From contig JALXFE010000182.1 in assembly GCA_027069135.1 (NCBI GenBank), positions 67,175 through 131,174 on the forward strand: a stretch of DNA of 64,000 bases, in the 5' to 3' direction. Numbering within the stretch: the stretch's first letter is position 1; the number at the start of each line of letters is the position of its first letter. Made by a program: the position numbers and the translations under genes. The notes beneath the pieces were generated by a model. It ran no database searches. It had not been told where the DNA came from and worked only from the letters and a program-made list of their open reading frames with translations. Source of the DNA: Thermoanaerobaculia bacterium (GTDB lineage Bacteria > Acidobacteriota > Thermoanaerobaculia > Multivoradales > JAHZIX01). Shown piece after piece: positions 9,287 to 36,464 of the stretch.

Positions 9287-9380
9287 AGGTCTTACCTAGG
9301 GGGCAGGTGCCGGCTTCAGCGCTCAGACCCTCGGGTGGCGGAGTCGGGATCTGCCGGATCGGCATACCTGGAGGACATCG

Positions 9381-18300: not shown

Positions 18301-18989
18301 ATCTCGCCGGAGACGGCTTGAAACAAATCTTGCGCATAGGTGAGGACCGCCGGCCACTCCTCATCGACGGGCGGCTCTTCCCGAGTCAGGAAGCTATCGA
18401 AGGCCTCGAGCATTCCCAGAGTCCAGGCGTCCCCGGTGACCGGCTCGAGGAATTGTCGAGGAATCCACGGCGGGTGCAGGGGATCACCGTACAGCCGGCC
18501 GCTGCGGTCGAGGAGGGCACAGATCCAAAGAGGGTAGAGGAGGGTTTCCTTGCGATCGGAGATCCAGCCGTGGAAAGCCCGGCGGGAAAGGACCAGCGGA
18601 GCGACCAAGAGGGGAGCCCGGCGCAGGGGCGGTAGCTTTTTCTTCGCCTTTGGAGGTAGCTTTCGGCGTCGATCCTCTTCCGCGATTTCGAAGGATCGGT
18701 CGACGAATTCCAAAGGCACGGTACCGGCCAGGAGGTGGCCCCGGGAGAGCTCGAAGACTTCCAGCGAGCGCAGATTGGGGTTGATCAGGTCCGCGTCGGC
18801 CAGGCAAGCCCGGAAATACTTGAGCAGCTTAGGGGGAGTGATGCGAGCTGTCACCGGCGAAGCCTGGGAGGGCGAGGGGTTGGCGGGCGACGGCATGGGC
18901 AGGATCATATCCTCCGCCCGAGTCAGTAGGGGGAGGCCAAGGCTAGCCGAAGTCCCCGTCTTTCCACCGGCCAACGATGTGATCGGCAC
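15375..18989 (-). CDS. Large SF1 (Upf1/DNA2-like, AAA_11/AAA_12) helicase fused to a C-terminal PLD/HKD nuclease domain, with a ~320-aa N-terminal domain of unknown function.
   Basis: Walker A 'VNGPPGTGKTT'. Motif II 'LIVDEAGQV'. 'VIGDEHQIEPI'. 'LREHRRCVPQIISYCNQLVYGGQL' (helicase motif IV of the DNA2/NAM7 type). 'VAVSRAKDAFLVFGD' (motif VI). C-terminal HKD 'RIHSKLLAVDRRWYIDGSFNW'. An alternative start at the internal Met (MILPMPS, ~18911) would remove the 47-nt overlap with the upstream GMC gene. Confidence 0.8.
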   Translation of the reverse strand: MPITSLAGGKTGTSASLGLPLLTRAEDMILPMPSPANPSPSQASPVTARITPPKLLKYFRACLADADLINPNLRSLEVFELSRGHLLAGTVPLEFVDRSFEIAEEDRRRKLPPKAKKKLPPLRRAPLLVAPLVLSRRAFHGWISDRKETLLYPLWICALLDRSGRLYGDPLHPPWIPRQFLEPVTGDAWTLGMLEAFDSFLTREEPPVDEEWPAVLTYAQDLFQAVSGEMPSEYQLEDFEVLGPRFAVQQIEKGFRKPLIDLADFVLGIDPAPAVLQSLARAPGAKPAAGPDDPGAGGGLSHLGQMTGRFPLGPSQRQSLACALELRDGEILAVNGPPGTGKTTLVQSIVASLWVQRALEGSEPPLIHVCSTNNQAVTNVLDSFDAAAENEKEGLATRWLPEIRSYGLFFPAASQTRNEPEKKYQTAELAGNTLRGSLGEMETSRYVKEAHSHYLDRAQGVLGFSATGLTVDKVVTELRRQLRDSAADLKQRLESTARRAAKDVTKAWDPSSLDRRLGALEGLHQDRSKLRAELLGACRNLPWYLELFDFFPAVRRRRDRWLGWPLIERELPTPELGSSNFETTLLRHVRILLAPEEEEAELLRWIRMQLTTQDPESPLSEALASTASPIRAVPLFLDVGLRHRLFQLAARYWEGRWLQEMEELFSASEHAPMPLDQARLLRFRRLAKLTPALVSTLFRSPRVFDYYDREEGRAFPLIGALDLLIVDEAGQVAPEIGAAVLPLAKRAIVIGDEHQIEPIWGIHRRVDSANLRAAGLDAGSQDLDPFRCSSSSLLRLAQRATRWTASPRRDGLFLREHRRCVPQIISYCNQLVYGGQLEPHREALPSSPLPAFGWAHVRSEAKRVRGSWANAGEAWAIARWLHGRREEIEAFYDGRPLEELVGVVTPFSAQRTELIKALTPKSPGRRKEGKGAGKGGGSGKKDAVPIAEIGTVHTFQGAEREIMIFSPVYCAETAPKKRFFDDGKNMLNVAVSRAKDAFLVFGDMELFDPMSPGPSGVLATHIFEVPENEIGDVAPSPDLWRQAEAGKLPARQLLTLEDHREALREALRESQEQVLIVSPYLTRRAIEADGIDAALRQAHHRGVEVKILYCVDLHRRPEVAAEVAEDLRQCGAEVHPVPRIHSKLLAVDRRWYIDGSFNWLGAVRDTNDPYHRLETSTRLEFIGVDLQIDKAWKEVERRITGGRG

Positions 18990-20472
18990 TGCGGAAGCTG
19001 TTGGCCAGGAGGGTCAGGGTCGGCGCGGCTCCGCCGGAAGTCGGCATGAAGCTGCCGTCGACCACGAAGAGATTCGCTACATCGTGGGCTTGGCAATAAC
19101 CGTTGAGCACCGAGGTGGTCGGGTCGTCACCAGCCCGGCAGGTGCCCTGGACAAGATAGGAGGAGGTACCGCCGATGTCGGTGGCGGCGAGATCCACACC
19201 CCCCAGGTCGTCCAAGAGCTCGAAGGCCCGGTCCAGCAGCCACCGTCCAGCCCGCCGGTGGTGTCCCGGAAGATCGAGGTGAATGCGGGCGACCGGTAAG
19301 CCCCGGGCGTCGCGGGTCTCCGGATCCAAGTCCACGAAGGTACGCGAGTTCGGGAGGAAATCGTGGAAGACCTCGCAGTAGAGGGTCAGAGGGTTCTCCT
19401 TGGGGACGATTCCGAAGCGCAGAACCCCACCCTTGGCCAGGTCGGATACGCCTTCGGGAAGAAAATAATGATCCATGACGGACACGCCCAAGAACGGTGC
19501 CGCCGATTCCGGGGCCCCCGCGAGCCGTCCCTGCCCCATCGAGACACCATGGAATTGCAAATGGCGCCCCACCCGGCCGCCGTTGTTGGCCAGGCCGTTC
19601 GGGAAACGCGGTGATTTGGAAAGGAGGAGAAGGCGGGCGGACTCGATGGCGGAGCAGCTGACACACACGATCTTGGCTCGGACCTCGACTTCCTCGCCGC
19701 TGCTGTTGAAGTACACGCAGCCGGAAGCGCGGCCACGGCGGTCGACGGTCACCTCTTTGACTTGCGAGTGAGGTCGGATCTCGCAGCGGCCGGTGGCTTC
19801 AGCGCGGGCCAGGAGAGCCTCCGGGCTGGTGCCTCGGGCGCCGATCGGGCATCCGAGACCAGCGCATTCCTCGCAATACCGACAGGCCGGGCGGCCCTGG
19901 TACGGATGGGAGTTCACGGCCCGAGGCGTCGCAAAGGGGTGGAGGCTGCGAGCTTGGCAAGTCTCTTTGAGAGCGCTGGCGATGGGATGAGCCTCGAGGG
20001 GGGGCAACGGGTAGGGGCGGGAGCGGCGGCCGGCGAAGGGATCCTCACCGGCCTGACCGGCAACCCCGATCTCCCACTCGGCCCGGCTCAGGTAGGGCTC
20101 CAGTTCCTCGTAGGCGTAGGGCCAATCAGCCAATTCTTCATAGTCTCCGAAACGACTCTGCATTCGGAAATCATCCGGGAGAAAGCGGTAGAAATAGCCT
20201 CCCATATGGACCGTACCGCCCCCGACACACACAGCGCCCCAACCCAGCCGGGTTCGGATCGGGGAGAGGGTCTTAGAGGTGACAACGGTGTGGGGATCGT
20301 CGTCTACCGAAGGAAAGAAGTCTTCGGCCAACAGACCGTCCGAGTGTTCGAAATCCCGCCGGGAATAGCGGGGGCCTCTCTCCAATACCAGGACCTGGGC
20401 TCCGGCTCGCGCCAGGGTCAGGGCCAGAGCACCTCCTCCCGCTCCACTTCCGATGATAACGGCATCATGCAT
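18943..20472 (-). CDS. GMC-family FAD-dependent oxidoreductase.
   Basis: N-terminal 'DAVIIGSGAGGGALALTLARAGAQVLVLERG' FAD-binding fold. C-terminal GMC signature '...GTCRAGDDPTTSVLNGYCQAHDVANLFVVDGSFMPTSGGAAPTLTL'. Confidence 0.85.
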   Translation of the reverse strand: MHDAVIIGSGAGGGALALTLARAGAQVLVLERGPRYSRRDFEHSDGLLAEDFFPSVDDDPHTVVTSKTLSPIRTRLGWGAVCVGGGTVHMGGYFYRFLPDDFRMQSRFGDYEELADWPYAYEELEPYLSRAEWEIGVAGQAGEDPFAGRRSRPYPLPPLEAHPIASALKETCQARSLHPFATPRAVNSHPYQGRPACRYCEECAGLGCPIGARGTSPEALLARAEATGRCEIRPHSQVKEVTVDRRGRASGCVYFNSSGEEVEVRAKIVCVSCSAIESARLLLLSKSPRFPNGLANNGGRVGRHLQFHGVSMGQGRLAGAPESAAPFLGVSVMDHYFLPEGVSDLAKGGVLRFGIVPKENPLTLYCEVFHDFLPNSRTFVDLDPETRDARGLPVARIHLDLPGHHRRAGRWLLDRAFELLDDLGGVDLAATDIGGTSSYLVQGTCRAGDDPTTSVLNGYCQAHDVANLFVVDGSFMPTSGGAAPTLTLLANSFRSADHIVGRWKDGDFG

Positions 20473-20518
20473 ATTTATATCTCGCCTAGGTTTTCAAGTC
20501 TAAAGTATACTGTGCGCG

Positions 20519-21541
20519 ATGGAAGCGGACCCGAAAACAATGTCCCCGGATCTCAAGCTCCGGCGACTGGCCAATGCCTATCAACTCTCCCGCGCCGTCC
20601 AGGTGGCCGCCCGCCTGGGCATCGGCCGGTTGTTACGGGATGGACCGATGTCCTGTCCCGACCTGGCCCGGGCGACGGCTACGGACGGTGGAGTGCTGAT
20701 CCGGCTCCTGCGCTTCCTGGCCGAGCTCCAAGTGGTGGAGGAGCTCCCGGGCAACGTCTTTGGTCCCACCCCTGTTTCCAATGTACTGCATCGGGTGGAC
20801 AACATCGGCCAGGGAGAGGAAGCCTGGGCTACCTGGAGCGCCTTGCCGGAGGCCCTCGAGTCAGGCCGTCCGGTCTTCTCCGAGGTCCACGGCCAGTCGT
20901 TCTATGAATATGCCCAGTCCCACCCGCAGCAGGGAGCCAACTGGCGGGAGTCCACCGAGGCCTTTGCCGCTGGCCTCGCCCCGTCCCTGGTCGACGCTCT
21001 GGATCTGTCCGGTGCTGCGTCCGTGGTCGACGTCGGTGGGGGGCAGGGCACTCTCCTGGCCGAGATTCTGCGGCGATATCCGGACTGCCGAGGCATTCTC
21101 TTGGATCTCCCGGAGGTTGTCCGCGGGGCCCCAGCGGTTCTGAAGAAGGCCGGTATTTCCCGGCGCTGCGAGGTCTCGCCGGGAGATGCCCTCGAGGGCG
21201 TACCCGTCGGCGCTGACGTCTATTTATTGAGCCGAGTGCTCTTCAATTGGCAGGACGAGCAGGCCGTCCGCTTGCTCTCTCGTTGCCGCGGCGCTGTTAA
21301 CCCCGGAGGTCGGGTGATGGTGGCCGAAGTGCTGAGCCCTCCGGAGGGGACACCGGAGCGCCGAGCCTTGGCCGGGGCCGACCTGCATCATTTCCTGCTT
21401 TGGGGCAGCAAGTTTCGTACCTTAGCGGAGTACGAGACTCTCTTCGGCCGTGCTGGCCTGGTTCTCGCTGAAGTCCGTGAAGTGGGGGCCGGCGACTGGA
21501 GAATCCTGGAAGGAAGGATCGACCTAGGCTCTCGCCGGTAG
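20519..21541 (+). CDS. Class I SAM-dependent O-methyltransferase (COMT/Methyltransf_2-like, with N-terminal dimerisation domain).
   Basis: SAM motif 'VVDVGGGQGTLLAEILRRYPDCRGILLDLPEVV'. Typical length (340 aa) and layout. Confidence 0.8.
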   Translation: MEADPKTMSPDLKLRRLANAYQLSRAVQVAARLGIGRLLRDGPMSCPDLARATATDGGVLIRLLRFLAELQVVEELPGNVFGPTPVSNVLHRVDNIGQGEEAWATWSALPEALESGRPVFSEVHGQSFYEYAQSHPQQGANWRESTEAFAAGLAPSLVDALDLSGAASVVDVGGGQGTLLAEILRRYPDCRGILLDLPEVVRGAPAVLKKAGISRRCEVSPGDALEGVPVGADVYLLSRVLFNWQDEQAVRLLSRCRGAVNPGGRVMVAEVLSPPEGTPERRALAGADLHHFLLWGSKFRTLAEYETLFGRAGLVLAEVREVGAGDWRILEGRIDLGSRR

Positions 21542-21580: not shown

Positions 21581-24500
21581 ATGACGGACTTTCGGGCGGA
21601 TTCCTGGTATCGAGCCCTCACCTGGAGAGAACGGCGAAGGATCTTGGGCGGTTCGGCTGCTGCTAGAGGGGAGGAGCCCCCGGGGGGAGACCTTCTCGAG
21701 AGATGGCACTCCCAGCCACCCTTCAACCGGGGGGAGTTTTTCGGGGAGAGATGGGTCCAGGAAGGGCTCACGGAGGAGGCTTTCGCCCGCATCCTTAGCG
21801 CTACCCTCGGCGAGCTGCGCAACGGATCTATGGATTCGCTGGCTTGGGTCGAGGAGCTCGAGCGGGCCTTTGAGTCTCCGGACGAACTCCTGCTTTCTGA
21901 TCTGCAGCCGAGCCGCGGGGAGGAGAGCAGCCCGTTCCTCGCCATCGTCCGTCCGTTGCTCGCTTCCGGGTATCGGCGCCTACAACGCAGTTTTGATCGC
22001 AGCCCCGACGAGGTTCCCTGGCAGCCGGAGCGGGTCGGCCGTACCCTTATCTCTCACGTCGCGGGCCGGCTCTCCATGTTTCTGCGCCGGGCTCTGGTCC
22101 TGGAGCTGAATATCGCCGGCCTCGAAGGAGGCCTTGAGGGAGAAAACCCGCAGGAACGTTTCGGAGATTTTGTCCGGCGGCTGGGGGAGGAGGAGTGGGC
22201 TCTCGAAATTCTAGAGAGATATCCCGTCCTGACTCGAAAGGTCATCGAGTGTATCGACCAGGGTGTGTCTTTGGGGGAGGAGTTCTTGGAGCGCTTCGCT
22301 CAAGATTGGCCGAGCCTGGAGCGGAGATTCGGTAAGACCGCTGGACCGTCGTTGGGCTCGAGCTTGGGACAGCTCGTGGAGGCTCGGCCCGGTGCCGGAG
22401 ATTCCCATCGCGATGGCCGTTCGGTGATCCTTCTTAAATTCTCCAGTGGCCGAAGGCTGGTCTACAAACCGCGCTCCCTGGCGGCGGAACGGTGCTTCGC
22501 GGAGCTCTTGGATTGGATCGATGAGAAGGGGGCCGAGCCGGCCTTAAAAACCCTCGGTATTTTGGACCGGGGGGAGTACGGTTGGACCGAATTTGTCGAA
22601 CCCGCCGGCTGCGGGAGCGAATCCGCAGTGCGGAGGTTCTACCGCAGGCAGGGGGGCTATCTGGCGCTCCTCTATCTCCTCGATGCCAACGATATCCACT
22701 TCGAGAATCTCATCGCCGCGGGTGAGCACCCGTTCCTGATCGACCTGGAGACTCTTTTTCACCCCCCCATCGACATCATGGAAGAAAGGTATCCCCTTCT
22801 ACTACCGGGCAACGGTCTCTACCGCAGCGTCCACAATATCGGGCTGCTGCCCCACCGGATCTGGGGCGGTGAGGGGCAAGAGGAAGGGGTGGATCTCAGC
22901 GCCCTGGCGTCGGAGGCTGGGCAGAGGACCGCCCAGCGATTGCTGGATATCGACGGGCCTGGCACCGACGGCATGCGCTTCGTGCGCAGACCCGCCGAGA
23001 TTCCCGAGATGGATCACGCTCCGCGATTGGACGGCCGAACTCTCGTGGCCGCCGACTACGCCGATGCCATCCGATCCGGGTTCGAGGGCATCTATCGGCT
23101 CCTTCTCGCCCATCGTCGGGAGCTCCTGGCCGAGGGCGGACCGCTGGCAGCCTTCGCCGGGGTGGAGGTACGGGTGATCTTCCGGCCGACCTTCTACTAC
23201 ACCAGCGTCCTGGAGGAGAGCTTCCATCCGGATGTTTTGCAGGATGCCCTGGAGCGGGATCTGCTCTTCGAGAGTCTGTGGGTGGAGGTCGAGAGCCGCC
23301 CGCGGTTGGCTGCGCTGATCGCGGAGGAGCAGCGGGATCTGGGCCGGACGGATATCCCGGTCTTCACAACCCGGCCCGACTCCCGGGATCTGTGGACCGG
23401 CTTCGGGAAACGTCTTCCGGACTATTGGCGGGAGACCCCGTTGAGCCGGGCGGAGGCGAAGCTCGAGGCCCTCGATGAAGCGGACCTGGGCCGGCAGACC
23501 TGGTTGATCGAGACGTCCCTCAAGACCGTTCGCCGTCCGGAAGAAACGCCCGAGCGGGAGACATATCCTTTTCAGCAAGCCCCCACGGAGGCCACGGCAG
23601 AAGAGCTCCTGAAAGGTGCCGTGGCCGCGGCGAGACGTTTGGAAGGGCTGGCCTTTCGCGGGCCCCAGGGCGACGCATCCTGGTCGATCGTGGCCCCGGT
23701 GGGCACCGGCCATTGGGTCTACGGCCCCGCGGAACCGGGGCTCTACCAGGGGTTGGCGGGGATCGCCCTTTTTCTCGCCTATCTCGGGGCGACAACGGGG
23801 GAGACGTGGTCCACGGATCTGGCCCGGGCTGCCTGGACCACCCTCCGGCACCAGCTGCGGTCCGGACAGATCGCCTTGCCCGGCGTCGGCGCCTTTACCG
23901 GCTGGGGAGGAATCCTCTACAGCGCGGTCCATCTGGGGGTGCTGTGGGACGACGAAGCACTGATTGAAGAGGCCGAAGAGATGGTGGCGGCTCTGCCCGA
24001 GAGAATCGCCCAGGACTCCTGGCACGATGTGGTCGGAGGAGCTGCTGGCTGCCTGCTGAGCCTGCTGAGCCTGCACCGGGTGCGGCCCTCCGAGGGCACC
24101 CGGCGGGCCGCGATCCTGTGCGGCGAGCGGCTGCTGGCCAACGCCAAGACCCTGGAGGTGGGATGCGGGTGGGTGGTGGAGGCCGCAGGTCCGCAGCCCC
24201 TTTCCGGGCTCTCCCACGGTGCCGCGGGCATCGCCCTGGCACTCTTCGAGCTCTCAGATCTGAGTGGGGAAGAGCGTTTCCGGGATCTGGCGCTGGGAGC
24301 CATCGACTACGAGCGCACCCTTTATTCGCCAGCCGATGAGAATTGGATCGACCTGCGGGAGGGGGAGCGCCCGGAAGGGACCTTTCATGGCTCCGGCCAT
24401 GATTTCGTGGTTGGTTGGTGCCATGGCGCACCGGGTATCGGTCTGGCCCGGTTGGCGGGTCTCCGGCATCTCGACGATGCCGCGGTACGCGAGGAAATCG

Positions 24501-24838
24501 CCATCGCGCTCAAGACCACCCGAGCGCTGGGTTTCGGCGCCAACCATAGCCTGTGTCATGGAGATCTCGGGAATCTGGACCTCCTGCTCATCGCCAGCCA
24601 GGTTCTCAAGGATTCCGATCTTCGGACGGCGACCTACCACCTCGCCGGAGGAACCCTCGCCGGCATAAGTCGGCACGGCTGGCTCTACGGTTATCCATCG
24701 AAAGTCGAGCCTTTGGGTCTGATGGTCGGGCTGGCGGGCATCGGATATCAGCTGCTCCGGCTAGCGGCGCCGTCCCGGGTACCGTCGGTTCTCATCTTGG
24801 AGCCGCCGGTGGGATCCGGAGGGGTTGCCGAGAATTGA
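21581..24838 (+). CDS. lanM: Class II lanthipeptide synthetase LanM (N-terminal dehydratase DUF4135 + C-terminal LanC-like cyclase).
   Basis: 1085 aa. Kinase-like dehydratase motif 'NDIHFENLIAAGEHPFLIDLETLFHPP'. LanC zinc-ligand motifs 'GWCHGAPGIGLA' and 'CHGDLGNLDLLL', plus 'SHGAAGIALALFE'. Confidence 0.9.
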   Translation: MTDFRADSWYRALTWRERRRILGGSAAARGEEPPGGDLLERWHSQPPFNRGEFFGERWVQEGLTEEAFARILSATLGELRNGSMDSLAWVEELERAFESPDELLLSDLQPSRGEESSPFLAIVRPLLASGYRRLQRSFDRSPDEVPWQPERVGRTLISHVAGRLSMFLRRALVLELNIAGLEGGLEGENPQERFGDFVRRLGEEEWALEILERYPVLTRKVIECIDQGVSLGEEFLERFAQDWPSLERRFGKTAGPSLGSSLGQLVEARPGAGDSHRDGRSVILLKFSSGRRLVYKPRSLAAERCFAELLDWIDEKGAEPALKTLGILDRGEYGWTEFVEPAGCGSESAVRRFYRRQGGYLALLYLLDANDIHFENLIAAGEHPFLIDLETLFHPPIDIMEERYPLLLPGNGLYRSVHNIGLLPHRIWGGEGQEEGVDLSALASEAGQRTAQRLLDIDGPGTDGMRFVRRPAEIPEMDHAPRLDGRTLVAADYADAIRSGFEGIYRLLLAHRRELLAEGGPLAAFAGVEVRVIFRPTFYYTSVLEESFHPDVLQDALERDLLFESLWVEVESRPRLAALIAEEQRDLGRTDIPVFTTRPDSRDLWTGFGKRLPDYWRETPLSRAEAKLEALDEADLGRQTWLIETSLKTVRRPEETPERETYPFQQAPTEATAEELLKGAVAAARRLEGLAFRGPQGDASWSIVAPVGTGHWVYGPAEPGLYQGLAGIALFLAYLGATTGETWSTDLARAAWTTLRHQLRSGQIALPGVGAFTGWGGILYSAVHLGVLWDDEALIEEAEEMVAALPERIAQDSWHDVVGGAAGCLLSLLSLHRVRPSEGTRRAAILCGERLLANAKTLEVGCGWVVEAAGPQPLSGLSHGAAGIALALFELSDLSGEERFRDLALGAIDYERTLYSPADENWIDLREGERPEGTFHGSGHDFVVGWCHGAPGIGLARLAGLRHLDDAAVREEIAIALKTTRALGFGANHSLCHGDLGNLDLLLIASQVLKDSDLRTATYHLAGGTLAGISRHGWLYGYPSKVEPLGLMVGLAGIGYQLLRLAAPSRVPSVLILEPPVGSGGVAEN

Positions 24839-24862
24839 CATTGAAAATATCTACGGTATAAA
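24835..24862 (+). promoter_or_regulatory. Sigma70-like promoter (TTGACA-16 nt-TATAAA) immediately after, and overlapping, the lanM stop, positioned to drive the precursor gene.
   Basis: TTGACA at 24835-24840, TATAAA at 24857-24862, 16-nt spacer, in an AT-rich 170-bp intergenic region. Confidence 0.4.
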
Positions 24863-24965
24863 ATTAGCTTATTGTGATCTGTCGACTAATCTGACGCCTG
24901 AATGGTCGCCTGGGCGGGCGATAGGCGGACGATTGGACGACGTGAAGTTTCTGTCGGGAGGAATC

Positions 24966-25005
24966 CCTCCTTCTGGCGAGAACCTTCGCACTATCTAGAA
25001 GGAGG
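24966..25005 (+). promoter_or_regulatory. Hairpin that pairs the lanA Shine-Dalgarno (GAAGGAGG) with an upstream anti-SD (CCTCCTTCTGG).
   Basis: 24966-24976 cctccttctgg pairs with 24995-25005 ctagaaggagg: an 11-bp stem with one G.U pair and an 18-nt loop. ATG of lanA is at 25011. Confidence 0.45.
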
Positions 25006-25010
25006 CTTGG

Positions 25011-25235
25011 ATGAAGAAACAGGAAATCGCTCGTGCGTGGAGAGATCCCAAGTACCGCCGGAGCCTGAGCACCGAGCAGAAGGCTCAGCTACCGACCCAT
25101 CCGGCAGAGTGGATGGTGGGGGTCGAGGACGACGTCCTCGCGAGCGTCACCGGTGGCTGTTGCTACCCGGGGAACAATACCGTCACGTTGTGTACCGGCA
25201 TCTGTTCCCCTTGCCCGCCGGTGCATTGCTACTAG
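25011..25235 (+). CDS. lanA: Lanthipeptide precursor (LanA) with an NHLP-like leader ending in a double-glycine and a Cys-rich 25-aa core.
   Basis: 74 aa: MKKQEIARAWRDPKYRRSLSTEQKAQLPTHPAEWMVGVEDDVLASVTGG | CCYPGNNTVTLCTGICSPCPPVHCY. 'ARAWRDPKYRRSL' resembles the NHLP leader motif (AKAWKDPaFkqeL). GG precedes the core. SD GAAGGAGG sits 5 nt upstream. Located between lanM and a C39-peptidase ABC transporter. Confidence 0.8.
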   Translation: MKKQEIARAWRDPKYRRSLSTEQKAQLPTHPAEWMVGVEDDVLASVTGGCCYPGNNTVTLCTGICSPCPPVHCY

Positions 25236-25265
25236 GCTCTTGAGGCTTTAGCTTTCGGCGGGTAA

Positions 25266-25300
25266 GACCACTGACGGGCCTTACCCGCCGGAGTCGGAGC
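25266..25300. terminator. Hairpin between convergent lanA and lanT. Candidate bidirectional terminator.
   Basis: cggcgggtaag (25266-25276) pairs with cttacccgccg (25290-25300): an 11-bp stem with a 13-nt loop. No clear U-tract. Confidence 0.35.
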
Positions 25301-25313
25301 CACGCCAGGGCCC

Positions 25314-27542
25314 TCAACTTCCAGAGTCCTCCCGCCTGCGCAGCTGCGCATCGACCAGGCGGGCGTAGGCTCCCGGTCTCTCCATCAACTCCTGATGGGT
25401 TCCCCTCTCGACGATCCTCCCTCCCTCCATTACCAGAATCTGATCGGCGGCCATGATGGTGCTGAGCCGATGGGCGATGACGATGCGGGTACAGCGCAGC
25501 TCGGCCAAAGCACTTTGGATCCGTGATTCAGTGAGGGCATCGAGGTTGCTGGTGGCTTCGTCGAGGAGCAGAATGGCGGGGCGATGAAGGAGGGCGCGGG
25601 CGAGGGCGAGGCGCTGGCGCTGGCCGCCGGAAAGGGAAGCGCCGCCGTCCGGCAGCATGGTGTCGAAGCCCATGGGCATGGCCAGGATTTCTTCTTCGAT
25701 CTGGGCCGTTCGGGCGGCTTCCCGGACCCGGTCCAAGGACGCCTCGGGATCTGCCAGGGCGATGTTCTCCCGGATCGATCCACCGAAGAGAAAGGGGTGC
25801 TGGAGGACGACGCCGAGCCGCGAGCGCAACGCCTGCAAATCGAGGCCCGCCAGGTCTTGTCCGTCGTAGAGGATCCGTCCCGAGGTCGGTCGGTAGAGCC
25901 CGACGCAGAGATGGGCGAGGGTTGATTTTCCGGCCCCGGAGGAACCCACCAACGCGACGAAGCTTCCGGGCTCGATGTCGACGGATACTTCCTGCACCAC
26001 CTTCGGCGCCTCGGCGCTATAACGGAAGCTGACGGTCTCCAAGAGGATGCCGCCGCGAAGCTTGGCAACGGCCGCCCCCTTTTGTCCGTCTCGCTCCCTA
26101 GGGGTTTCCATGACGTCCTGGATGCGTTCCAGATAGCTCCCCAGGAGTTGTAGCTGAACGCCGGTCGAGACCAGGGTAGAAAGGGGGCCGAGGAAGCCCA
26201 CCGCCAGGGCGTTGAGAGCCAGCATCGTGCCCAGAGTGAGCTCACCCTCGAGGACCAGGAATCCCCCGAAGACCAGGACGATCAGGGGCGAGGCGGTGGC
26301 CAGGGCGGAGAGCAGGGAGTCAAAGAGGGCGTTCAGGCGGCCCCGGGCCAGGGAGACGTTGAGCTCGTCGGTGAAAAGGCCGGACCAATGCTCCACCGCT
26401 CTGCGCTCTGCCCCTACGGTCTTGAGGGTTTCAATCCCCGTCAACATCTGCACCTGAAAGGCCCGGGACCGGGCCTCGGTGCTGAGAGATTCCGCCATGA
26501 GAGCCCGTTGCCGGCGACGGGTAGCCAGGAACAATCCGACCCGCAGAGCTCCGAGGAAGAGCACCAGGAGCGCGATGGGCACGTGAGTCAGAAACATCAG
26601 GACGAGGTAGAGACCGACGAGCACACCGTCGAGGATCCCCGAGAGGGCGCCGGAGGTGAGAATCTCCCGGATGGTCGAGTTGCTGTTGAGGCGCATCATG
26701 AGATCGCCAGCGGAGCGCTGCTGAAAAAAGGCGTAGGGGAGCTCGACCAGATGATCGAGAAACTCCAACGTCATTCGCCAATCGAGCTGAGTGCGCAGCT
26801 GGAGGAGCAAGTAGGCGCGGACGAGAGAAGAGAGAAAGTCGAAGACGACGATGGCTCCAAGGCCGACGGCAGCCACCGTCAGCAGGCCGTAATCTCCCCG
26901 GGGCACAACCCGGTCCACCAGCAAGGCGGTCCAGAGAGGAAGGGCCAAAGCCAAGAGCTGGAGGAGTACCGACATCACCAGGAGGCGCGAGAGAAGCCCG
27001 GAGTGCTCGAGGATCCGACGCAGGTAGCGCCCGACACCTCGGGAGCGGGGGCCGGAAGTCTCGAAGTCCTCTCCCGGTCGCAGGGTCAATGCGATGCCGG
27101 TGAAGGATCGTTCCAGCTCCCCGCGGGAGACGGTCCGTTTCCCGGCCGTCGGATCGACGATCCGGGCGCCCTTGCCGGTCAGTTTTTCCAGAACCACGAA
27201 ATGATCCATCTGCCAGTGAAGGATCGATCCCGGCTCGAGGAACTCGAGATCTCCGACTTCCTCGATGCGGACCCCCCGGCCCTGCAACCCGAATCGACGG
27301 GCGGTCTCGAGGAGAGTCCGGGCGTCCGCGCCGTCGCGGCCGATGCCGCAGGCATTCCGGACTTCGTCCAGGCCCACCGGCTTTCCGAAGTAGGCCAGGA
27401 CCATGGCCAGGCAGGCGGGCCCACAGTCGGTGGCGGAGGTCTGCAGGATCGGCAGAAGGGTCCGACGGCGCCGAGCACCCAGGCCCATGAGGAGGGGGAA
27501 TCGCCTCGCCAGGGCGTCGAAGAAGCGGGAGCTACTCTTCAT
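25314..27542 (-). CDS. lanT: Bifunctional peptidase-C39/ABC transporter (LanT/SunT-type bacteriocin processing-export protein).
   Basis: N-terminal C39 domain 'QTSATDCGPACLAMVLAYFG' (catalytic Cys) with downstream 'HFVVLE'. Six-TM domain. Walker A 'GSSGAGKST'. Signature 'LSGGQRQRLALARAL'. Walker B 'ILLLDEATS'. Confidence 0.9.
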   Translation of the reverse strand: MKSSSRFFDALARRFPLLMGLGARRRRTLLPILQTSATDCGPACLAMVLAYFGKPVGLDEVRNACGIGRDGADARTLLETARRFGLQGRGVRIEEVGDLEFLEPGSILHWQMDHFVVLEKLTGKGARIVDPTAGKRTVSRGELERSFTGIALTLRPGEDFETSGPRSRGVGRYLRRILEHSGLLSRLLVMSVLLQLLALALPLWTALLVDRVVPRGDYGLLTVAAVGLGAIVVFDFLSSLVRAYLLLQLRTQLDWRMTLEFLDHLVELPYAFFQQRSAGDLMMRLNSNSTIREILTSGALSGILDGVLVGLYLVLMFLTHVPIALLVLFLGALRVGLFLATRRRQRALMAESLSTEARSRAFQVQMLTGIETLKTVGAERRAVEHWSGLFTDELNVSLARGRLNALFDSLLSALATASPLIVLVFGGFLVLEGELTLGTMLALNALAVGFLGPLSTLVSTGVQLQLLGSYLERIQDVMETPRERDGQKGAAVAKLRGGILLETVSFRYSAEAPKVVQEVSVDIEPGSFVALVGSSGAGKSTLAHLCVGLYRPTSGRILYDGQDLAGLDLQALRSRLGVVLQHPFLFGGSIRENIALADPEASLDRVREAARTAQIEEEILAMPMGFDTMLPDGGASLSGGQRQRLALARALLHRPAILLLDEATSNLDALTESRIQSALAELRCTRIVIAHRLSTIMAADQILVMEGGRIVERGTHQELMERPGAYARLVDAQLRRREDSGS

Positions 27543-28176
27543 CGCCGTCCAAGAATTCCGCGAGCGGGGGCAACAGGCGCGACAGGATGCGCTCGGAACG
27601 AATCAGGATCTCGACGGTTCCCTGGAGCCCATGGTGGTACGGGAGAGAATCGTTGCCGATCTCGAAGCTCTCCCCCGGAAGCCGGGCGAAGGCGATAGCC
27701 AAGGGACCTGAAAGGGTCATGGCGTCGGCAAGGTCGGTGTCCAGGAGGCGGTCCAGCTCAAGAGGTCCTAGAATCCGCTCCTCGACCCGGTCTACGGTCA
27801 GTCGCTGGTAGCTGGTGCCGTAGCCTCGCAGGCTCAGATGCAGGGGCATACCAGGGCCGAGGACGGGACGATAGTGGCCGGGAAACACAGCGATGAGGGT
27901 GGGGCTCGAAACCTTGCTCCGGTCCGGCATTAGCACCATAGCGGTGCCCTGGGCATATTCCCCGATTGTCCCCAAGACCCCGAAGAGTATCGCGCTGGCC
28001 ACCACCAGGAGCACAAGCCCTTCGACCCAGCGGATCCAGCGGGGAGAAATCTCCAACGGACCGGTCAAGCGGCGATGCCCGGCAGCATGGGCCGCGACCG
28101 CTTGGCGGCGGAAGAGGCCCTGGCGCGGCTTTTCCGGAGCAGAGCTTGTTGCCGGACGAGATCGCTGTTCCATCAT
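27532..28176 (-). CDS. Short HlyD/CvaA-like secretion accessory protein (membrane fusion protein partner of LanT).
   Basis: 'LFRRQAVAAHAAGHRRLTGPLEISPRWIRW' resembles the CvaA/LcnD N-terminal motif (FRqEAl...). Single TM 'GLVLLVVASAILFGVLG'. Only 214 aa, lacking a long coiled coil. 11-nt overlap with the lanT start. Confidence 0.6.
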   Translation of the reverse strand: MMEQRSRPATSSAPEKPRQGLFRRQAVAAHAAGHRRLTGPLEISPRWIRWVEGLVLLVVASAILFGVLGTIGEYAQGTAMVLMPDRSKVSSPTLIAVFPGHYRPVLGPGMPLHLSLRGYGTSYQRLTVDRVEERILGPLELDRLLDTDLADAMTLSGPLAIAFARLPGESFEIGNDSLPYHHGLQGTVEILIRSERILSRLLPPLAEFLDGDEE

Positions 28177-31615: not shown

Positions 31616-33715
31616 TCAGCTCGGAAGAGTCGACGGTTCTGTCGGCCGCAGGATCCAGGCCAGCACCACCGCCGCCAGGGCCAGGGAGAGGAGGCCCCGG
31701 AGAGGGTGCCCGAGCAGGAGATCTCCAATTCCTGCTAAGGGGGCGAAGACGACGATCACTCCGCCTAAGAAGCGCAGCACCATGGGGCGTACCGGGTCCG
31801 CGGGAGAGTCCAGGTAAGGGCGGAAGCTGGGGCCTGGGGGACGCACTCGCCGAGCGAAGCTTCGGAGCGTGTGTTCCGAATTTCGAGGCCCCGCCAAGGA
31901 GACCGTGACCCAGGTGATCAGACTGGAGCCGGCGACCAGGAGAATCTTGGTCCACGGTTCGATGGCACCGAAAAAGAGCGGGTTGGCGGCGCCCAAGAGG
32001 GTGGGGGCGTCGAGGAGTTCGAGACCTAAAGCGACGGTGGTCGTCATCCCCAGAGCTGCGAATTCCGCCTGGGGCGTGACCCGGGCCCAATACCATCGGG
32101 CCGCGGCGACGCTGCCCAATCCTGCTCCCAAGGTGATGAGGAAACGCCACACGGAAGCGATATTGCCGATGAAAAGGGCGGTGATCCCTGCCAATAGGGC
32201 GATGAGGATGATGGCGATTCGGCTGACGGCGACGTAATGCTCGGCAGAGGCCTGGGGTCGCAAGAACCGGCGGTAGACATCTTGGACGAGGTAGGAAGCC
32301 CCCCAATTGGTGTGGGTGTCGATGGTGCTCATGAAGGCCGCGAGCAGGCTCACCACGACGAGTCCCAACAAACCCGGCGGTAGGGTACGGCCGAGAATCA
32401 GCGGATAGGCCATCTCCCGGTCGACGAGCTCGACTCGGAGGCCTGGGATCGAGAGATCTCCTTCGGCGCAGCGCAGACGAAGGTCGTAGGTGCCGGATTG
32501 ATCGAAGCCCTGGAATCGGAGGGTCGCCGCGGGGCCTGGATGTAGTGAGCCGGCGGCAGCAGGCTCCAGGGGAACCGTCTGGCCACCGGCATCGGCGTCG
32601 GTACAGCCGGGAGGTAGGCCGCGGATCTCTAGTTCGCCCCCGGTCGCCACGTCCAGGCTGGCGGGGGTCACAAAGAGGCTCCTCTCCGAGCTGCCGGGAG
32701 GTGCGAATGTCAGATTCTCCAGAGCTTCCCCGGGGAGGCGTGGGTAGATCACCAAGGCTGCCAGCCCCACCAGGAGCCAGGGCCAGGGCCTCAGGGAATT
32801 GTGCGCGACCGAAAACCAGAGGCTGGCCCCCTGGGCGTGGGCTTCGTTGCGACAGGCGGCGAACCGTTGCACCAGGTAGCCGGTGCCTTCCGCATATCGC
32901 CACCAGCCGGCCATGAGGAGCACGGCGAAGTACAGGGGGGGCAGGGTCGGATGATCCGGGGGCGGTAGGAGGTCCAGGACATCGGCCAAGGTCCGTCCCC
33001 CTTCCGCCTCGACGGCGCTCGCCAAGGAGCCCAGGAGTCCGCTGCCTTCCGTCCCGTCGGCAGGATTCGGGGCTTGGCCGATCCCTCCGAAGCTCTGGAC
33101 GACGAGGACCGCCAACAGAATGGCGCCGCCCATCCCCAAGGCGAATTGCACAAAGTCCGTGACCACGACGGATCGAAACCCACCCAGGAGGGTGTAGGCG
33201 ACGGAGACGATCACACAACCCGCCACCACCCAGGCGGGTTGCACATCGAAGAAGGCGCGGGCGATCTTGATCATGGCGGCGATCACCCAGGCCATGGTCA
33301 GGCAGTTGATGAAGATCCCGAAATAGATCGCCTTGACCCCTCGTAGCACCGCCGCTGGGCGTCCGCTGTAGCGAACCTCCGTGATCTCGGCGTCGGTGAT
33401 CACTCCGGAGCGGCGCCAGAGCCGGGCGAAGAAGAAAGTCGCCGTCAGGTGGGCGATGGCCCAGCTCCACCAGATCCAATTGCCGCTGATTCCGTCCGCC
33501 GCCACGATCCCCGTGACTGCCAGCGGGGTATCCGCGGCGAAGGTCGTGGCCACCATGGAAGTACCCGCCAACCACCAAGGCAGACGTCGGTCGCCGACGA
33601 AAAAGGACTCGAGCCCCTTCTTCGCCGACCGGGCGAAAAAGAACCCGACGGCCAAAGCGAAGACAACATAGCCAGCGATGACCGCGAAATCGACGGGATT
33701 GAGGGTGGGACGCAC
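31616..33715 (-). CDS. Sodium:solute symporter family (SSF) transporter carrying a ~110-aa extramembrane insertion.
   Basis: N-terminus 'NPVDFAVIAGYVVFALAVGFFFARSAKKGLESFFVGDRRLPWWLAGTSMVATTFAADTPLAVTG' is typical of SSF. Multiple TM segments. The insert 'ENLTFAPPGSSERSLFVTPASLDVATGGELEIRGLPPGCTDADAGGQTVPLEP...LRCAEGDLSIPGLRVELVD' lies between TM helices. Confidence 0.8.
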   Translation of the reverse strand: MRPTLNPVDFAVIAGYVVFALAVGFFFARSAKKGLESFFVGDRRLPWWLAGTSMVATTFAADTPLAVTGIVAADGISGNWIWWSWAIAHLTATFFFARLWRRSGVITDAEITEVRYSGRPAAVLRGVKAIYFGIFINCLTMAWVIAAMIKIARAFFDVQPAWVVAGCVIVSVAYTLLGGFRSVVVTDFVQFALGMGGAILLAVLVVQSFGGIGQAPNPADGTEGSGLLGSLASAVEAEGGRTLADVLDLLPPPDHPTLPPLYFAVLLMAGWWRYAEGTGYLVQRFAACRNEAHAQGASLWFSVAHNSLRPWPWLLVGLAALVIYPRLPGEALENLTFAPPGSSERSLFVTPASLDVATGGELEIRGLPPGCTDADAGGQTVPLEPAAAGSLHPGPAATLRFQGFDQSGTYDLRLRCAEGDLSIPGLRVELVDREMAYPLILGRTLPPGLLGLVVVSLLAAFMSTIDTHTNWGASYLVQDVYRRFLRPQASAEHYVAVSRIAIILIALLAGITALFIGNIASVWRFLITLGAGLGSVAAARWYWARVTPQAEFAALGMTTTVALGLELLDAPTLLGAANPLFFGAIEPWTKILLVAGSSLITWVTVSLAGPRNSEHTLRSFARRVRPPGPSFRPYLDSPADPVRPMVLRFLGGVIVVFAPLAGIGDLLLGHPLRGLLSLALAAVVLAWILRPTEPSTLPS

Positions 33716-33911
33716 CGGGGCATTGTATGCGGTGGAGTCTCCGGGGGGAAACCTTGGCGGGCTTTGCGCCGAGGCGGCAACCGTTTGGATTCTGCCCGAG
33801 CCATTTCGATGGCAGGTATTCCTTGATGTATTATCAGGCTGTGTAGAGAAATTCGAAGAGGTGACCGCAAGGGATGAGGGCCTCCGCCGTCTTCATCGGA
33901 GGTGCCGAACA

Positions 33912-36464
33912 ATGGCCTACCGTCGAAGGGCACTCGAGATCCTCGCCGTCGTGATCGTGACGGCTTGCGGCGGTCCCGGGGAAGGAACCGGCGTCGGCGC
34001 GGGAGATCCACTGGCGGACTGCGACCGAAGATACGCCCTTGCGCCCGCAGCTAGAAAGTCGGTCGACTGCTTCTACCAGTACGCCAAGAAGGCTTCCGCC
34101 AACTCGGAGCGAGCCCGGATTCGCCTGGAGAAGCTCATCGGTGAATCTCCCGGTGGCCCATGGCTCCGCTTCTACCTTGGGAATGTGCTCTGGGGCCACA
34201 GTGACTTGGAAGGAGCGGAGCAGCGCTACCGCGAGGCAGCGAAGCTCTTCAAGGAAAAAGGCGATAGAACTGGCGAAGTCGAGGCACGGACAACCTTGAT
34301 CCGACTCCTACAGTCACAGCCGCGACAAGATTGGCAGTGGCTCTGGGAAGAGCTCGAGATTCTCTCAGAGACCGCCCAAACCAGCGGCGACCCTGTCCTC
34401 CGAGCTCGGGCAGATATCAGAGAGGCAAATCAGCTACTGATCGAAGGGCGTGACCTCGAGCGGGCCTACAACCTGCTGCTGGCCGGGGAGACTCGAGTGA
34501 AAACGGCCCGAGATCGAGATCGCTATCTCGGCCGGTGGCTCGAGACCATGGTCAAGACGAGCTACTCCCTGGATCGTCTGCAAATCACGCAAGGGTATCT
34601 CCATGATTGGAAGGAGTTCCTCGCAGCGTCGGGCAGGAATCCCCAGCAATGGGCTACAGCTCTACATCTCGAGTTGGCGGTCTACGTCACCCTGGCCCCA
34701 CCTTCCGCGAAGGCTGGAGAACACGCTTTGGAGCTCGCCTACGAAGCCCTGGAAGCCGCCAGAGAAGCCAGGAGCTTCGAGAACTTCGTCCAGGTTCAGC
34801 GCCTCCTCGGAATGCTCGAGGGAGGGGAACGAGGGCGGAAGGCCCTCGAGGACTCAGTCGAGCGTATCGGCGATTTGCATCCCGAGATCGCGAGGCTCTG
34901 CCGAAGTGCATTGGCGGTCAACCTTGCGGCTCATCAACCGGAGGAAGCTCGGAGTCAAATGGGGGAAGTCCTGACCTCGGCAAGGGCTGCCGAGGACTCA
35001 TGGTCGCTACTCTTTGCCCTCGAGGACTCGGTCAAGATCGACTGGAAGATTCTGGAACGCGACCACGCTCTCGAGCGAACACAGGAGGCTCTCGACGCCA
35101 TAGAGGCCTTGAGAGCACGGCAGAAAGGAGACCTCGGGCGTGGGGGAGTCTTCTCCGCTTGGATGGGCCTCTTCGAGCTACAAGCTGGACGGCTTCTCTC
35201 CGGCACCGGCGGTGTTCCTTCCCGGCTCGATCTGGAGAGGGCTTTCGCGGTGCTGGAAAAGAAACGCGCTCGGGTGCTTCTCGAAACTCTTCAGGCATCC
35301 GGGGCCGAAGATGTCCGGCTCCCTACCTTCCCTTCCCTTGCCGAGGTAGAGGGGAGCCTGAGGGAGAACGAAGCCATGCTCTCGTATCAACTCGCCTACG
35401 ATGAGGACCTCTTTCGGGAGTTTGTAGGTGGGTCATGGATTCTCGTGTCGACCCGGGGAGGAACGCGGGCCTACAGGTTGCCGAACCTCCTCGAACTACA
35501 AGAACCCTTCGAGGGACTCAGGAGGCTCGATGACCCCGGCGATGATCCAGGCCTGCTAGCCTACCTCCATAGGCAACTCCTGGACAAAGCTCTGGAGAAG
35601 CTGCCTCGGGGTATCGCGCGCCTCATTCTCGTCTCCGACGGAGCCCTCCACCAACTTCCCTTCGCCGGCCTTCGGGAATCAGCAAAGGGGCCGCCGCTGA
35701 TCGCCCGATTCGAGCTCTCGACCGTACCGTCGGCGACCCTATGGTGGCAGTGGCGGCAGAGTGAGGACGTCCAGGGCAGCCTCCCGGCTCTGATCCTCGC
35801 CGACCCGGACATGGCTGACCTCGAAGAGGCGGGAAACCACCGGCGGCCGGACGAAAAATCAAAGAAAATTCTGGGCTCCCTGCCCTATGCTCGCGTGGAG
35901 GGGCAGCTGGCCTTTCGCTACCTTCGAGGGGACAATCGACTCCTTCTCGGGGCAGAGGCTTCGGAGCATGGCCTCAAGGAGAAGCTCCTACAAGGGGACT
36001 TCGGGGCGATCCATTTCAGCGCTCACGCCTGGGCTGACGAGAGGTTTCCGGAACGATCCGCGATCTACCTGAGCTCTGGAGACGGCGAGGACGGCTTGTT
36101 GCATCCTGAAGAGATCGCCAACTTGAACCTCCGAGGCTTCCTCGTCGTCCTCGCGGCCTGCGACACCGGAGCGGGCGAGGTGCTTCGAGGAGAAGGAACC
36201 CTAAGCCTCGCGAGGTACTTTCTCAAGGCAGGTGCTGACAGCGTCTTAGCGAGCCACCGGAAACTGCCAGATCGGGAGGCGGCGGAGTTCTTCGCCTCTT
36301 TCTACCGCCTGGTTGGAGAAGGAGATAGCGTTCAGGCAGCCCTGGCAAGCGCACAGCGAGAAGCTCGCGAGAAGGGAGTCTCAGAAGGAGTGTGGGCCAA
36401 TATCGTCCTCTTCGGCGACGGCTCGTTGGTACTTCGCCCTCGGACCGAGGGGCCACGTCTGTAG
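33912..36464 (+). CDS. Lipoprotein with N-terminal TPR region and C-terminal CHAT (caspase-like) protease domain.
   Basis: Lipobox 'AVVIVTACGG' at the internal ATG 33912. The track start at 33678 overlaps the convergent SSF gene and is rejected. CHAT dyad regions 'IHFSAHAWAD' (His) and 'LVVLAACDTGAG' (Cys). Confidence 0.8.
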   Translation: MAYRRRALEILAVVIVTACGGPGEGTGVGAGDPLADCDRRYALAPAARKSVDCFYQYAKKASANSERARIRLEKLIGESPGGPWLRFYLGNVLWGHSDLEGAEQRYREAAKLFKEKGDRTGEVEARTTLIRLLQSQPRQDWQWLWEELEILSETAQTSGDPVLRARADIREANQLLIEGRDLERAYNLLLAGETRVKTARDRDRYLGRWLETMVKTSYSLDRLQITQGYLHDWKEFLAASGRNPQQWATALHLELAVYVTLAPPSAKAGEHALELAYEALEAAREARSFENFVQVQRLLGMLEGGERGRKALEDSVERIGDLHPEIARLCRSALAVNLAAHQPEEARSQMGEVLTSARAAEDSWSLLFALEDSVKIDWKILERDHALERTQEALDAIEALRARQKGDLGRGGVFSAWMGLFELQAGRLLSGTGGVPSRLDLERAFAVLEKKRARVLLETLQASGAEDVRLPTFPSLAEVEGSLRENEAMLSYQLAYDEDLFREFVGGSWILVSTRGGTRAYRLPNLLELQEPFEGLRRLDDPGDDPGLLAYLHRQLLDKALEKLPRGIARLILVSDGALHQLPFAGLRESAKGPPLIARFELSTVPSATLWWQWRQSEDVQGSLPALILADPDMADLEEAGNHRRPDEKSKKILGSLPYARVEGQLAFRYLRGDNRLLLGAEASEHGLKEKLLQGDFGAIHFSAHAWADERFPERSAIYLSSGDGEDGLLHPEEIANLNLRGFLVVLAACDTGAGEVLRGEGTLSLARYFLKAGADSVLASHRKLPDREAAEFFASFYRLVGEGDSVQAALASAQREAREKGVSEGVWANIVLFGDGSLVLRPRTEGPRL

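Follow-up and report, generated by a model that had tools for sequence, protein, structure and literature searches.

A possible three-element translational switch in the leader of a class II lanthipeptide precursor gene from Acidobacteriota

In the 64,000-nucleotide stretch of Thermoanaerobaculia DNA analyzed here (contig JALXFE010000182.1; hereafter the window), the leader of the lanthipeptide precursor gene lanA may act as a bistable translational switch whose default state is ON. Nearest-neighbor prediction, the source of all RNA structures described here, makes this a plausible reading, to be held with somewhat less than even confidence. A pyrimidine tract (Y, the anti-SD; 24966-24976) could pair either with an upstream purine arm (R, the anti-anti-SD; 24953-24962), within a hairpin termed HP2, or with the Shine-Dalgarno (SD) region of lanA at 24995-25005. 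In the intact primary transcript, which would represent the ON default, HP2 would form first and be the more stable helix, so that the SD, lying in the loop of a weak hairpin, would remain exposed and lanA would be translatable. The OFF state would be triggered once endonucleolytic processing removes the 5′ strand of HP2 (approximately 24942-24956) or a trans-acting RNA or protein occupies it; the released anti-SD would then close a 10-11-bp stem over the SD. From these models we infer switching in vivo, its trigger and its purpose. One guess at the purpose is that precursor translation would be restricted to intact, fresh transcripts, another that it would be matched to the capacity for modification and export. 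The elements concerned are listed below.

24835-24864 (+), putative sigma-70-type promoter of lanA: TTGACA, an 18-nt spacer and TAAAAT (or TATAAA with a 17-nt spacer), 11 of 12 consensus positions
24881-24941 (+), HP1, first predicted hairpin of the leader: -28.6 kcal/mol, z = -4.5, present in all full-length folds
24942-24989 (+), HP2, predicted 20-bp imperfect hairpin with the anti-SD in its 3′ arm: -24.7 kcal/mol, z = -4.5
24953-24962 (+), R, the candidate anti-anti-SD, an SD-like purine arm (GUCGGGAGGA) taken from the MFE structure and the three-way test described below
24966-24976 (+), Y, the anti-SD tract (CCUCCUUCUGG), common to HP2 and the SD helix
24976-24989 (+), mini-hairpin GCGAG-AACC-UUCGC, seen in the isolated fold of 24966-25005
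24995-25005 (+), SD region (CUAGAAGGAGG), containing the SD core 24998-25005
25011-25235 (+), lanA, encoding a 74-aa class II lanthipeptide precursor of the mersacidin/lichenicidin family (TIGR03898)
25257-25290 (+), GC-rich hairpin (GGCGGGUAAG...CUUACCCGCC) between the convergent genes lanA and lanT; the region 25236-25313 folds with -41.8 kcal/mol

The locus has the make-up of a class II lanthipeptide locus, namely a match to a precursor family with an adjacent LanM gene and an adjacent gene for a peptidase-type ABC exporter. The lanA ORF scores 55 bits against TIGR03898 (cut-off 23.5; E = 5.8e-15), it is preceded by the lanM gene (21581-24838; TIGR03897, E = 6e-281), and lanT, which encodes an ABC exporter and is convergent with lanA, follows downstream (25314-27542). 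The best NCBIfam matches of the exporter are TIGR03796 (NHLP bacteriocin export ABC transporter peptidase/permease/ATPase subunit) and bacteriocin_ABC, both of which fall below the equivalog and subfamily cut-offs. Equivalent exporter genes in homologous loci encode Peptidase_C39, ABC_membrane and ABC_tran domains. The -35 box of the putative promoter, TTGACA, overlaps the TGA stop codon of lanM (24836-24838), and lanA therefore appears to have its own near-consensus promoter abutting lanM. This position, derived from the consensus match, places the TSS near 24871 and gives a leader of approximately 140 nt. The arrangement TTGACA-N14-TG.. is present upstream of lanA in eight of 14 homologous loci. 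The hairpin at 25257-25290 is terminator-like, lacks a U tract and drew no intrinsic-terminator call.

A preliminary description of this DNA had proposed an 11-bp stem with one G.U pair and an 18-nt loop, involving an SD located 5 nt before the lanA ATG, and all of these sequence facts are correct. By direct reading, CCTCCTTCTGG (24966-24976) finds its complementary partner in CTAGAAGGAGG (24995-25005). As RNA, the helix consists of 11 contiguous pairs, ten Watson-Crick and G24975.U24996, around the loop 24977-24994; the SD core GAAGGAGG (24998-25005) is followed by a 5-nt spacer, CTTGG, and by the lanA ATG at 25011. The mini-hairpin would be nested within the 18-nt loop in the OFF fold and taken up into the outer helices of HP2 in the ON fold. 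A repeat search of the 202-nt leader region recovered 24966-24974 and 24997-25005 as inverted arms of 9 nt with 100% complementarity. No other long inverted repeat in that region has separate arms, the second reported pair being an overlapping palindrome. The SD segment forms a duplex of -18.8 kcal/mol with the upstream leader, where dinucleotide shuffles give -11.2 +/- 2.1 (p = 0.002-0.003), and the isolated anti-SD:SD hairpin has -18.4 kcal/mol (z = -4.1 against shuffles). The complementarity is real and non-random (p ~0.002 against shuffles). By raw duplex energy lanA ranks 11th of the 178 SD-like-plus-start sites in this GC-rich window (top 6%). Its SD complementarity is unusual but not extreme, given the number of genes scanned.

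HP2 and the SD stem (24966-25005) are mutually exclusive, overlap at the anti-SD and both have z <= -4; the leader contains the three-segment arrangement in which two mutually exclusive helices share one anti-SD. In the inner helix of HP2, R (24953-24962) pairs with 24968-24977 through seven Watson-Crick and three G.U pairs. Y matches the SD better (ten Watson-Crick pairs and one G.U) than it matches R, which is not expected of a tract selected for HP2 alone. HP2 is predicted to outcompete the SD stem because of its outer helices, GUGAAG/CUUCGC and UUCU/AGAA. For each 5′ end from 24500 to 24880, HP2 has a probability of 0.97-0.99 and the anti-SD:SD stem one of at most 0.03 (at most 0.07 in shorter sub-fragments). 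Imposing the 11 pairs of the stem costs 3.3-5.4 kcal/mol, depending on the fragment, and no context containing 24942-24965 has the stem as its predicted fold. The mean unpaired probability of the SD is mostly 0.5-0.8 for 5′ ends 24500-24880, with 0.64-0.80 over 24998-25005 for 5′ ends 24800-24880. In the MFE fold the SD core lies in the loop of a weak local hairpin (24992-25013), with its GGAGG core mostly unpaired. HP2 is complete before the SD is transcribed, so that kinetics would also favor HP2. A difference in folding between read-through and promoter-proximal transcripts was considered and discarded, HP2 having a probability of at least 0.97 for 5′ ends 24500-24880.

These folds bear on the preliminary description, which had taken the stem for an SD-occluding structure. 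That view does not survive the comparison with HP2, which is the more stable hairpin (-24.7 vs -18.4 kcal/mol), is transcribed first and makes up at least 97% of the ensemble. The folding analysis that the description had proposed finds the stem "marginal against alternative folds", the very outcome it had named as speaking against its model. A thermosensor had been among its suggestions. Over an in silico folding series from 10 to 55 °C, the stem probability climbs from 0.0002 to no more than 0.05 while SD accessibility holds at 0.75-0.80, and with so flat a response this option is unsupported. In a sequestering hairpin or thermometer, the native transcript at rest has its SD paired, whereas in the predicted ground state of the lanA leader the SD is mostly unpaired.

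Removal or occupancy of 24942-24956 flips the model to full sequestration of the SD. With a modeled 5′ end at 24945 or at 24954-24966, the anti-SD:SD stem has a probability of 0.77-1.0, and with 5′ ends at 24948-24952 one of 0.24-0.53; from 24954 onward, SD accessibility drops to 0.00-0.15. In these models the balance between HP2 and the SD stem is poised. As a separate observation, HP1 is a 61-nt hairpin that starts approximately 10 nt from the inferred TSS, and when its 3′ strand is freed (modeled 5′ end 24930) the balance moves towards SD sequestration (P = 0.74).

The comparison with homologous leaders draws on ten lanA homologs, 45-78% identical, and on 13 further independent lanA leaders recovered besides that of the window. 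Genome and metagenome scans added only L016 and L017, and a profile search returned 306 family members, with one further close relative, L018, among the loci looked up. The closest named relatives are Acidobacteriota MAGs. Protein identity to the window LanA is 78% in L001, 70% in L012, 63% in L018 and 71% in L013. Leaders were given a three-way score, for which one 14-nt tract pairs both with the SD segment and with an upstream segment. The resulting p values are 0.0013 for the window, 0.008 for L001, 0.0007 for L012, 0.087 for L018, 0.024 for L007 and 0.025 for L011, with a Fisher's combined p of 0.0045 without the window; runs of purines and of pyrimidines in the leader raise the likelihood of SD-like and anti-SD-like arms above that assumed by the dinucleotide shuffle behind such values. 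Of the 178 natural SD-plus-start sites of the window, used for calibration, 1.1% have p <= 0.01 and 6.2% have p <= 0.05, and lanA is one of the top two by three-way score. The window result is robust to changed segment definitions.

Among the closest long-leader relatives the switch-like layout has kept its position (weakly in L018), although their leaders have no recognizable similarity to that of the window. The Y tract lies at -44 in the window and L001, at -51 in L012 and at -45 in L018. The window leader has no BLASTN similarity to the homologous leaders, and an origin from a repeat or mobile element was rejected on finding it unique within the window and dissimilar to the leaders of its homologs. 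The helices are built from different sequences, a change on one strand being matched on the other: GGAGG/CCUCC, GGAGCUG/CGGCUCC and AAGGAACG/UGUUCCUU, which extend to CCUCCUUCUGG/CUAGAAGGAGG, CGGCUCC-C-UCGG/CCGA-AA-GGAGCUG and UGUUCCUU-AC-UCUUU/AAAGA-AAGGAACG, respectively. When SD segments are swapped among leaders, the cognate segment ranks first or second of 14 on the leaders of the window, L001 and L012; the family-wide permutation test of such swaps gives only p = 0.086. L012 resembles the window in that R locks Y and that, once R is removed, the SD enters the Y helix (from 0.00 to 0.64-0.74). The leaders of L001 and L018 are predicted to hold the Y:SD helix already in their ground state (0.65-0.74).

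Conservation of the anti-SD, which the preliminary description had suggested as a check, holds in part: an equivalent pyrimidine tract, one that could pair with the cognate SD, occurs in the same interval (-51 to -31) in the closest long-leader homologs, and the anti-SD is absent from L013 (p = 0.9), the SD region of which is almost identical to that of the window. The sequestration that it had proposed is likewise found as a predicted ground state in two relatives, L001 and L018. It is not found family-wide: over 13 leaders (the window and 12 homologs) SD occlusion does not exceed that of shuffled leaders (Fisher p = 0.23), and a paired SD is therefore not a family trait beyond background. 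Leaders of approximately 40 nt (L004, L004b, L014b) have no room for a three-element layout. RNAalifold on five leaders gave only six weak pairs, located at the R/Y apex, from a set that is small and divergent and whose MAFFT leader alignments are unreliable. The predicted default state also varies, being ON in the window and L012 and OFF in L001 and L018, which is a poor fit with a single conserved logic. It is a rather doubtful extension that a clade of Acidobacteriota class II lanthipeptide loci would share a sensor-less anti-anti-SD/anti-SD/SD switch, by which only intact primary transcripts would be translated and 5′ trimming or occupancy of the first arm would silence the gene. A search of 24000-26000 against Rfam (E <= 10) gave no relevant match, thermometer models (ROSE, fourU) included, and no regulator gene was found in the cluster. 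For an aptamer or sensor domain, neither an Rfam family nor any leader sequence conserved with the homologous leaders was found.

The main rival to a default-open switch is almost as likely as the switch itself and needs no switching at all. According to this explanation, HP1 and HP2 stabilize or insulate an abundant precursor mRNA, the SD is constitutively open, and the complementarity between Y and the SD is a by-product of the purine-rich, SD-like 5′ arm and of the shared ancestry of the closest loci. It is well served by the dominance of HP2, at least 97% in each natural context and temperature tested, so that no prediction for the intact RNA contains the SD stem. The pyrimidine tract of the window also pairs with non-cognate SD segments of the GGAGG type (L013, -19.8; L007, -15.9), a regulator gene and an Rfam match are both absent, L013 lacks the anti-SD, and SD occlusion is not enriched across the family. 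Against this explanation stand the better fit of Y to the SD than to its HP2 partner, the rarity of the three-way layout among the 178 control sites together with its recurrence, in other sequences but at an identical position, in L001 and L012, and the SD-Y helix that is the predicted ground state in L001 and L018. Pure coincidence, with lanA being the best of many SD-proximal complementarities in a 64-kb scan, would agree with the rank of only 11th of 178 window sites in raw duplex energy and with a per-gene p of ~0.002, which over ~50 genes becomes ~0.1. The place among the top two of 178 by the calibrated three-way score and the independent recurrence in L001 and L012 make it improbable.

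Among structured models for the window, the least favored is the one originally proposed, in which the stem 24966-24976/24995-25005 is the resting, SD-occluding structure until heat, an sRNA, a protein or processing opens it. In its favor, the stem exists and, folded by itself, is stable (-18.4 kcal/mol, z = -4.1), its deficit of 3.3-5.4 kcal/mol is near the nearest-neighbor error for a competitor with three G.U pairs and bulges, and the SDs of L001 and L018 are predicted to be sequestered by just such a stem. Against this, HP2 is more stable and transcribed earlier, the stem stays at or below 0.03 for all natural 5′ ends, and temperature has no effect between 10 and 55 °C; we consider a resting stem unlikely. 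A further explanation invokes uORF control, with ribosomes on a short ORF that crosses the R and Y arms remodeling the helices. Two candidate frames exist in the window.

GTG 24942 or TTG 24933 to TAG 24998 (+), candidate uORF; the GTG 24942 frame would encode MKFLSGGIPPSGENLRTI, in which the anti-SD CCU-CCU is read as Pro-Pro
24973-25014 (+), candidate uORF from CUG 24973 to a UGA overlapping the lanA AUG; GGGAGGA lies 10 nt before the CUG

An AUG-initiated uORF of 11 codons spans the R and Y tracts in L018, which adds to the appeal of this explanation. It is nevertheless very improbable: none of the candidates has both a canonical start and an SD at the proper spacing, neither frame nor sequence is conserved across the window, L001, L012 and L018, and the R arm is predicted to be base-paired. 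The AUGA overlap arises from the conserved Met-Lys start. Control of the CsrA type was considered and set aside, the GGA motifs sitting, as judged by eye, in stems and not in hairpin loops.

Read as a default-open switch, the lanA leader would belong to a class of mechanism, three-element SD switching, that is already well known. The terms anti-anti-SD, anti-SD and SD are those of translational riboswitch platforms, for instance the Escherichia coli thiM TPP riboswitch (PMC2018614, PMC4288175). As in a thiM-type platform, three consecutive segments are present in the lanA leader, the middle one can pair upstream (ON) or with the SD (OFF), and capture of the first segment is predicted to flip the fold. 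Unlike a riboswitch, the lanA leader has no evident aptamer (no Rfam match and no conserved leader sequence). In leaders of the rpoS type, an upstream anti-SD arm in cis is displaced by the sRNAs DsrA, RprA and ArcZ ("anti-antisense"). The lanA leader likewise contains a segment able to base-pair with the ribosome-binding region, and the SD would be freed by a competitor that captures this segment. In lanA this competitor, the R arm, is built in cis, so that the default would be open, unlike that of rpoS, which is closed and opened by sRNAs; no sRNA is known for lanA.

Alternative pairing of consecutive leader segments also controls SD exposure in translational attenuation by leader peptides, as in ermC and cat. 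The segments of the lanA leader could similarly pair in alternative ways and set SD exposure. Unlike ermC and cat, the lanA leader has no ORF equipped with a canonical start and an SD of its own, the only frames being those with GTG or TTG starts without an SD or with a CUG start, none of them conserved. RNA thermometers such as ROSE and fourU share with lanA a pyrimidine tract in cis that is complementary to the SD. They differ in that the lanA SD is unpaired in the predicted ground state, does not respond to temperature in silico and lies in a region without an Rfam match; the lanA stem is a long, GC-rich, perfect helix, whereas thermometers have a labile helix with mismatches. STAB-SD and other 5′ stabilizer elements are represented by Bacillus thuringiensis cryIIIA. 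Like these, the lanA leader has an SD-like GGGAGGA (24956-24962; -55 to -49) with no ORF behind it, no ATG, GTG or TTG being found 5-12 nt downstream, together with strong 5′ hairpins. The SD-like arm is predicted to be paired inside HP2 (P = 0.97-0.99) and would therefore not be available to 30S subunits, unlike a STAB-SD.

Reports on type I toxin mRNAs describe anti-SD sequences and metastable co-transcriptional hairpins, with Helicobacter pylori aapA3 (PMC6733600) and timP (PMC13000454) as examples. The resemblance to lanA lies in a gene for a small peptide, an anti-SD tract in cis, an order of transcription that picks the hairpin, and a fold that changes upon 5′ or 3′ processing. The direction differs: the full-length toxin mRNA is reported to be inert and activated by processing, whereas full-length lanA mRNA is predicted to be active and would be silenced by 5′ trimming. 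Type I toxin systems, as portrayed there, further differ from lanA in their antisense RNA, none being present at lanA.

RiPP clusters are usually described in terms of transcription only, through promoters, LanR/K regulators and read-through hairpins after lanA. If the lanA leader does toggle access to the SD, precursor supply in these uncultivated Acidobacteriota would also be controlled at translation initiation, and a RiPP precursor would have a dedicated layer of post-transcriptional control. The leader would then be a compact, aptamer-free example of anti-anti-SD logic. In the literature searched on leader-RNA control of lantibiotics and lanthipeptides, no SD-sequestering or three-element precursor leader was found; a paper on an internal TSS in bottromycin biosynthesis concerns transcription and not SD pairing (PMC7113386). 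For heterologous constructs, a leader truncated between approximately 24945 and 24966 is predicted to silence lanA, and a leader that is kept whole or replaced is predicted to allow expression. Should the complementarity prove incidental, the lesson would be methodological: before a striking SD complement is named a sequestering hairpin, the whole transcript around it should be folded.

Several further features of these loci were observed. In the window, genes for an O-methyltransferase and a GMC-family oxidoreductase (18943-21541) precede lanM, and the distant homologous locus L011 (1-2749) also has GMC oxidoreductase and O-methyltransferase genes. Judged by gene content, this suggests that the two may be conserved tailoring enzymes of this lanthipeptide family. 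A gene for a protein of 214-236 aa (27532-28176, - strand) overlaps the end of lanT by a few bases, without a match in Pfam or NCBIfam; its position is kept in homologous loci (approximately 5600-6231, - strand, in L007 and L009), and its product may be a short membrane-fusion or accessory export protein. Elsewhere in the window lie several large genes for FG-GAP/ASPIC (UnbV) repeat proteins and one for a CHAT-domain protein (907-11174, 45100-47181 and 33678-36464), which are unrelated to the leader element.

In L016 (approximately 2925-3000), a perfect SD-like GAAAGGAGGUG that no ORF follows is found approximately 75 nt before lanA. The same leader has an AUCAG / CCUGAU / AUCAGGAG arrangement, one tract of which can pair upstream or with the SD, and a 9-codon AUG uORF ends inside the tract that is able to pair both ways. 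Tandem lanA paralogs occur in L004 (1655-2361) and L014 (663-1140); the second lanA of L014 begins 13 nt after the first and has its own SD and no separate leader. The LanT homolog of L005 (708-3652, - strand) carries N-terminal GAF domains fused to a C39-peptidase ABC exporter and is, from its predicted domains, an unusual sensor-exporter fusion.
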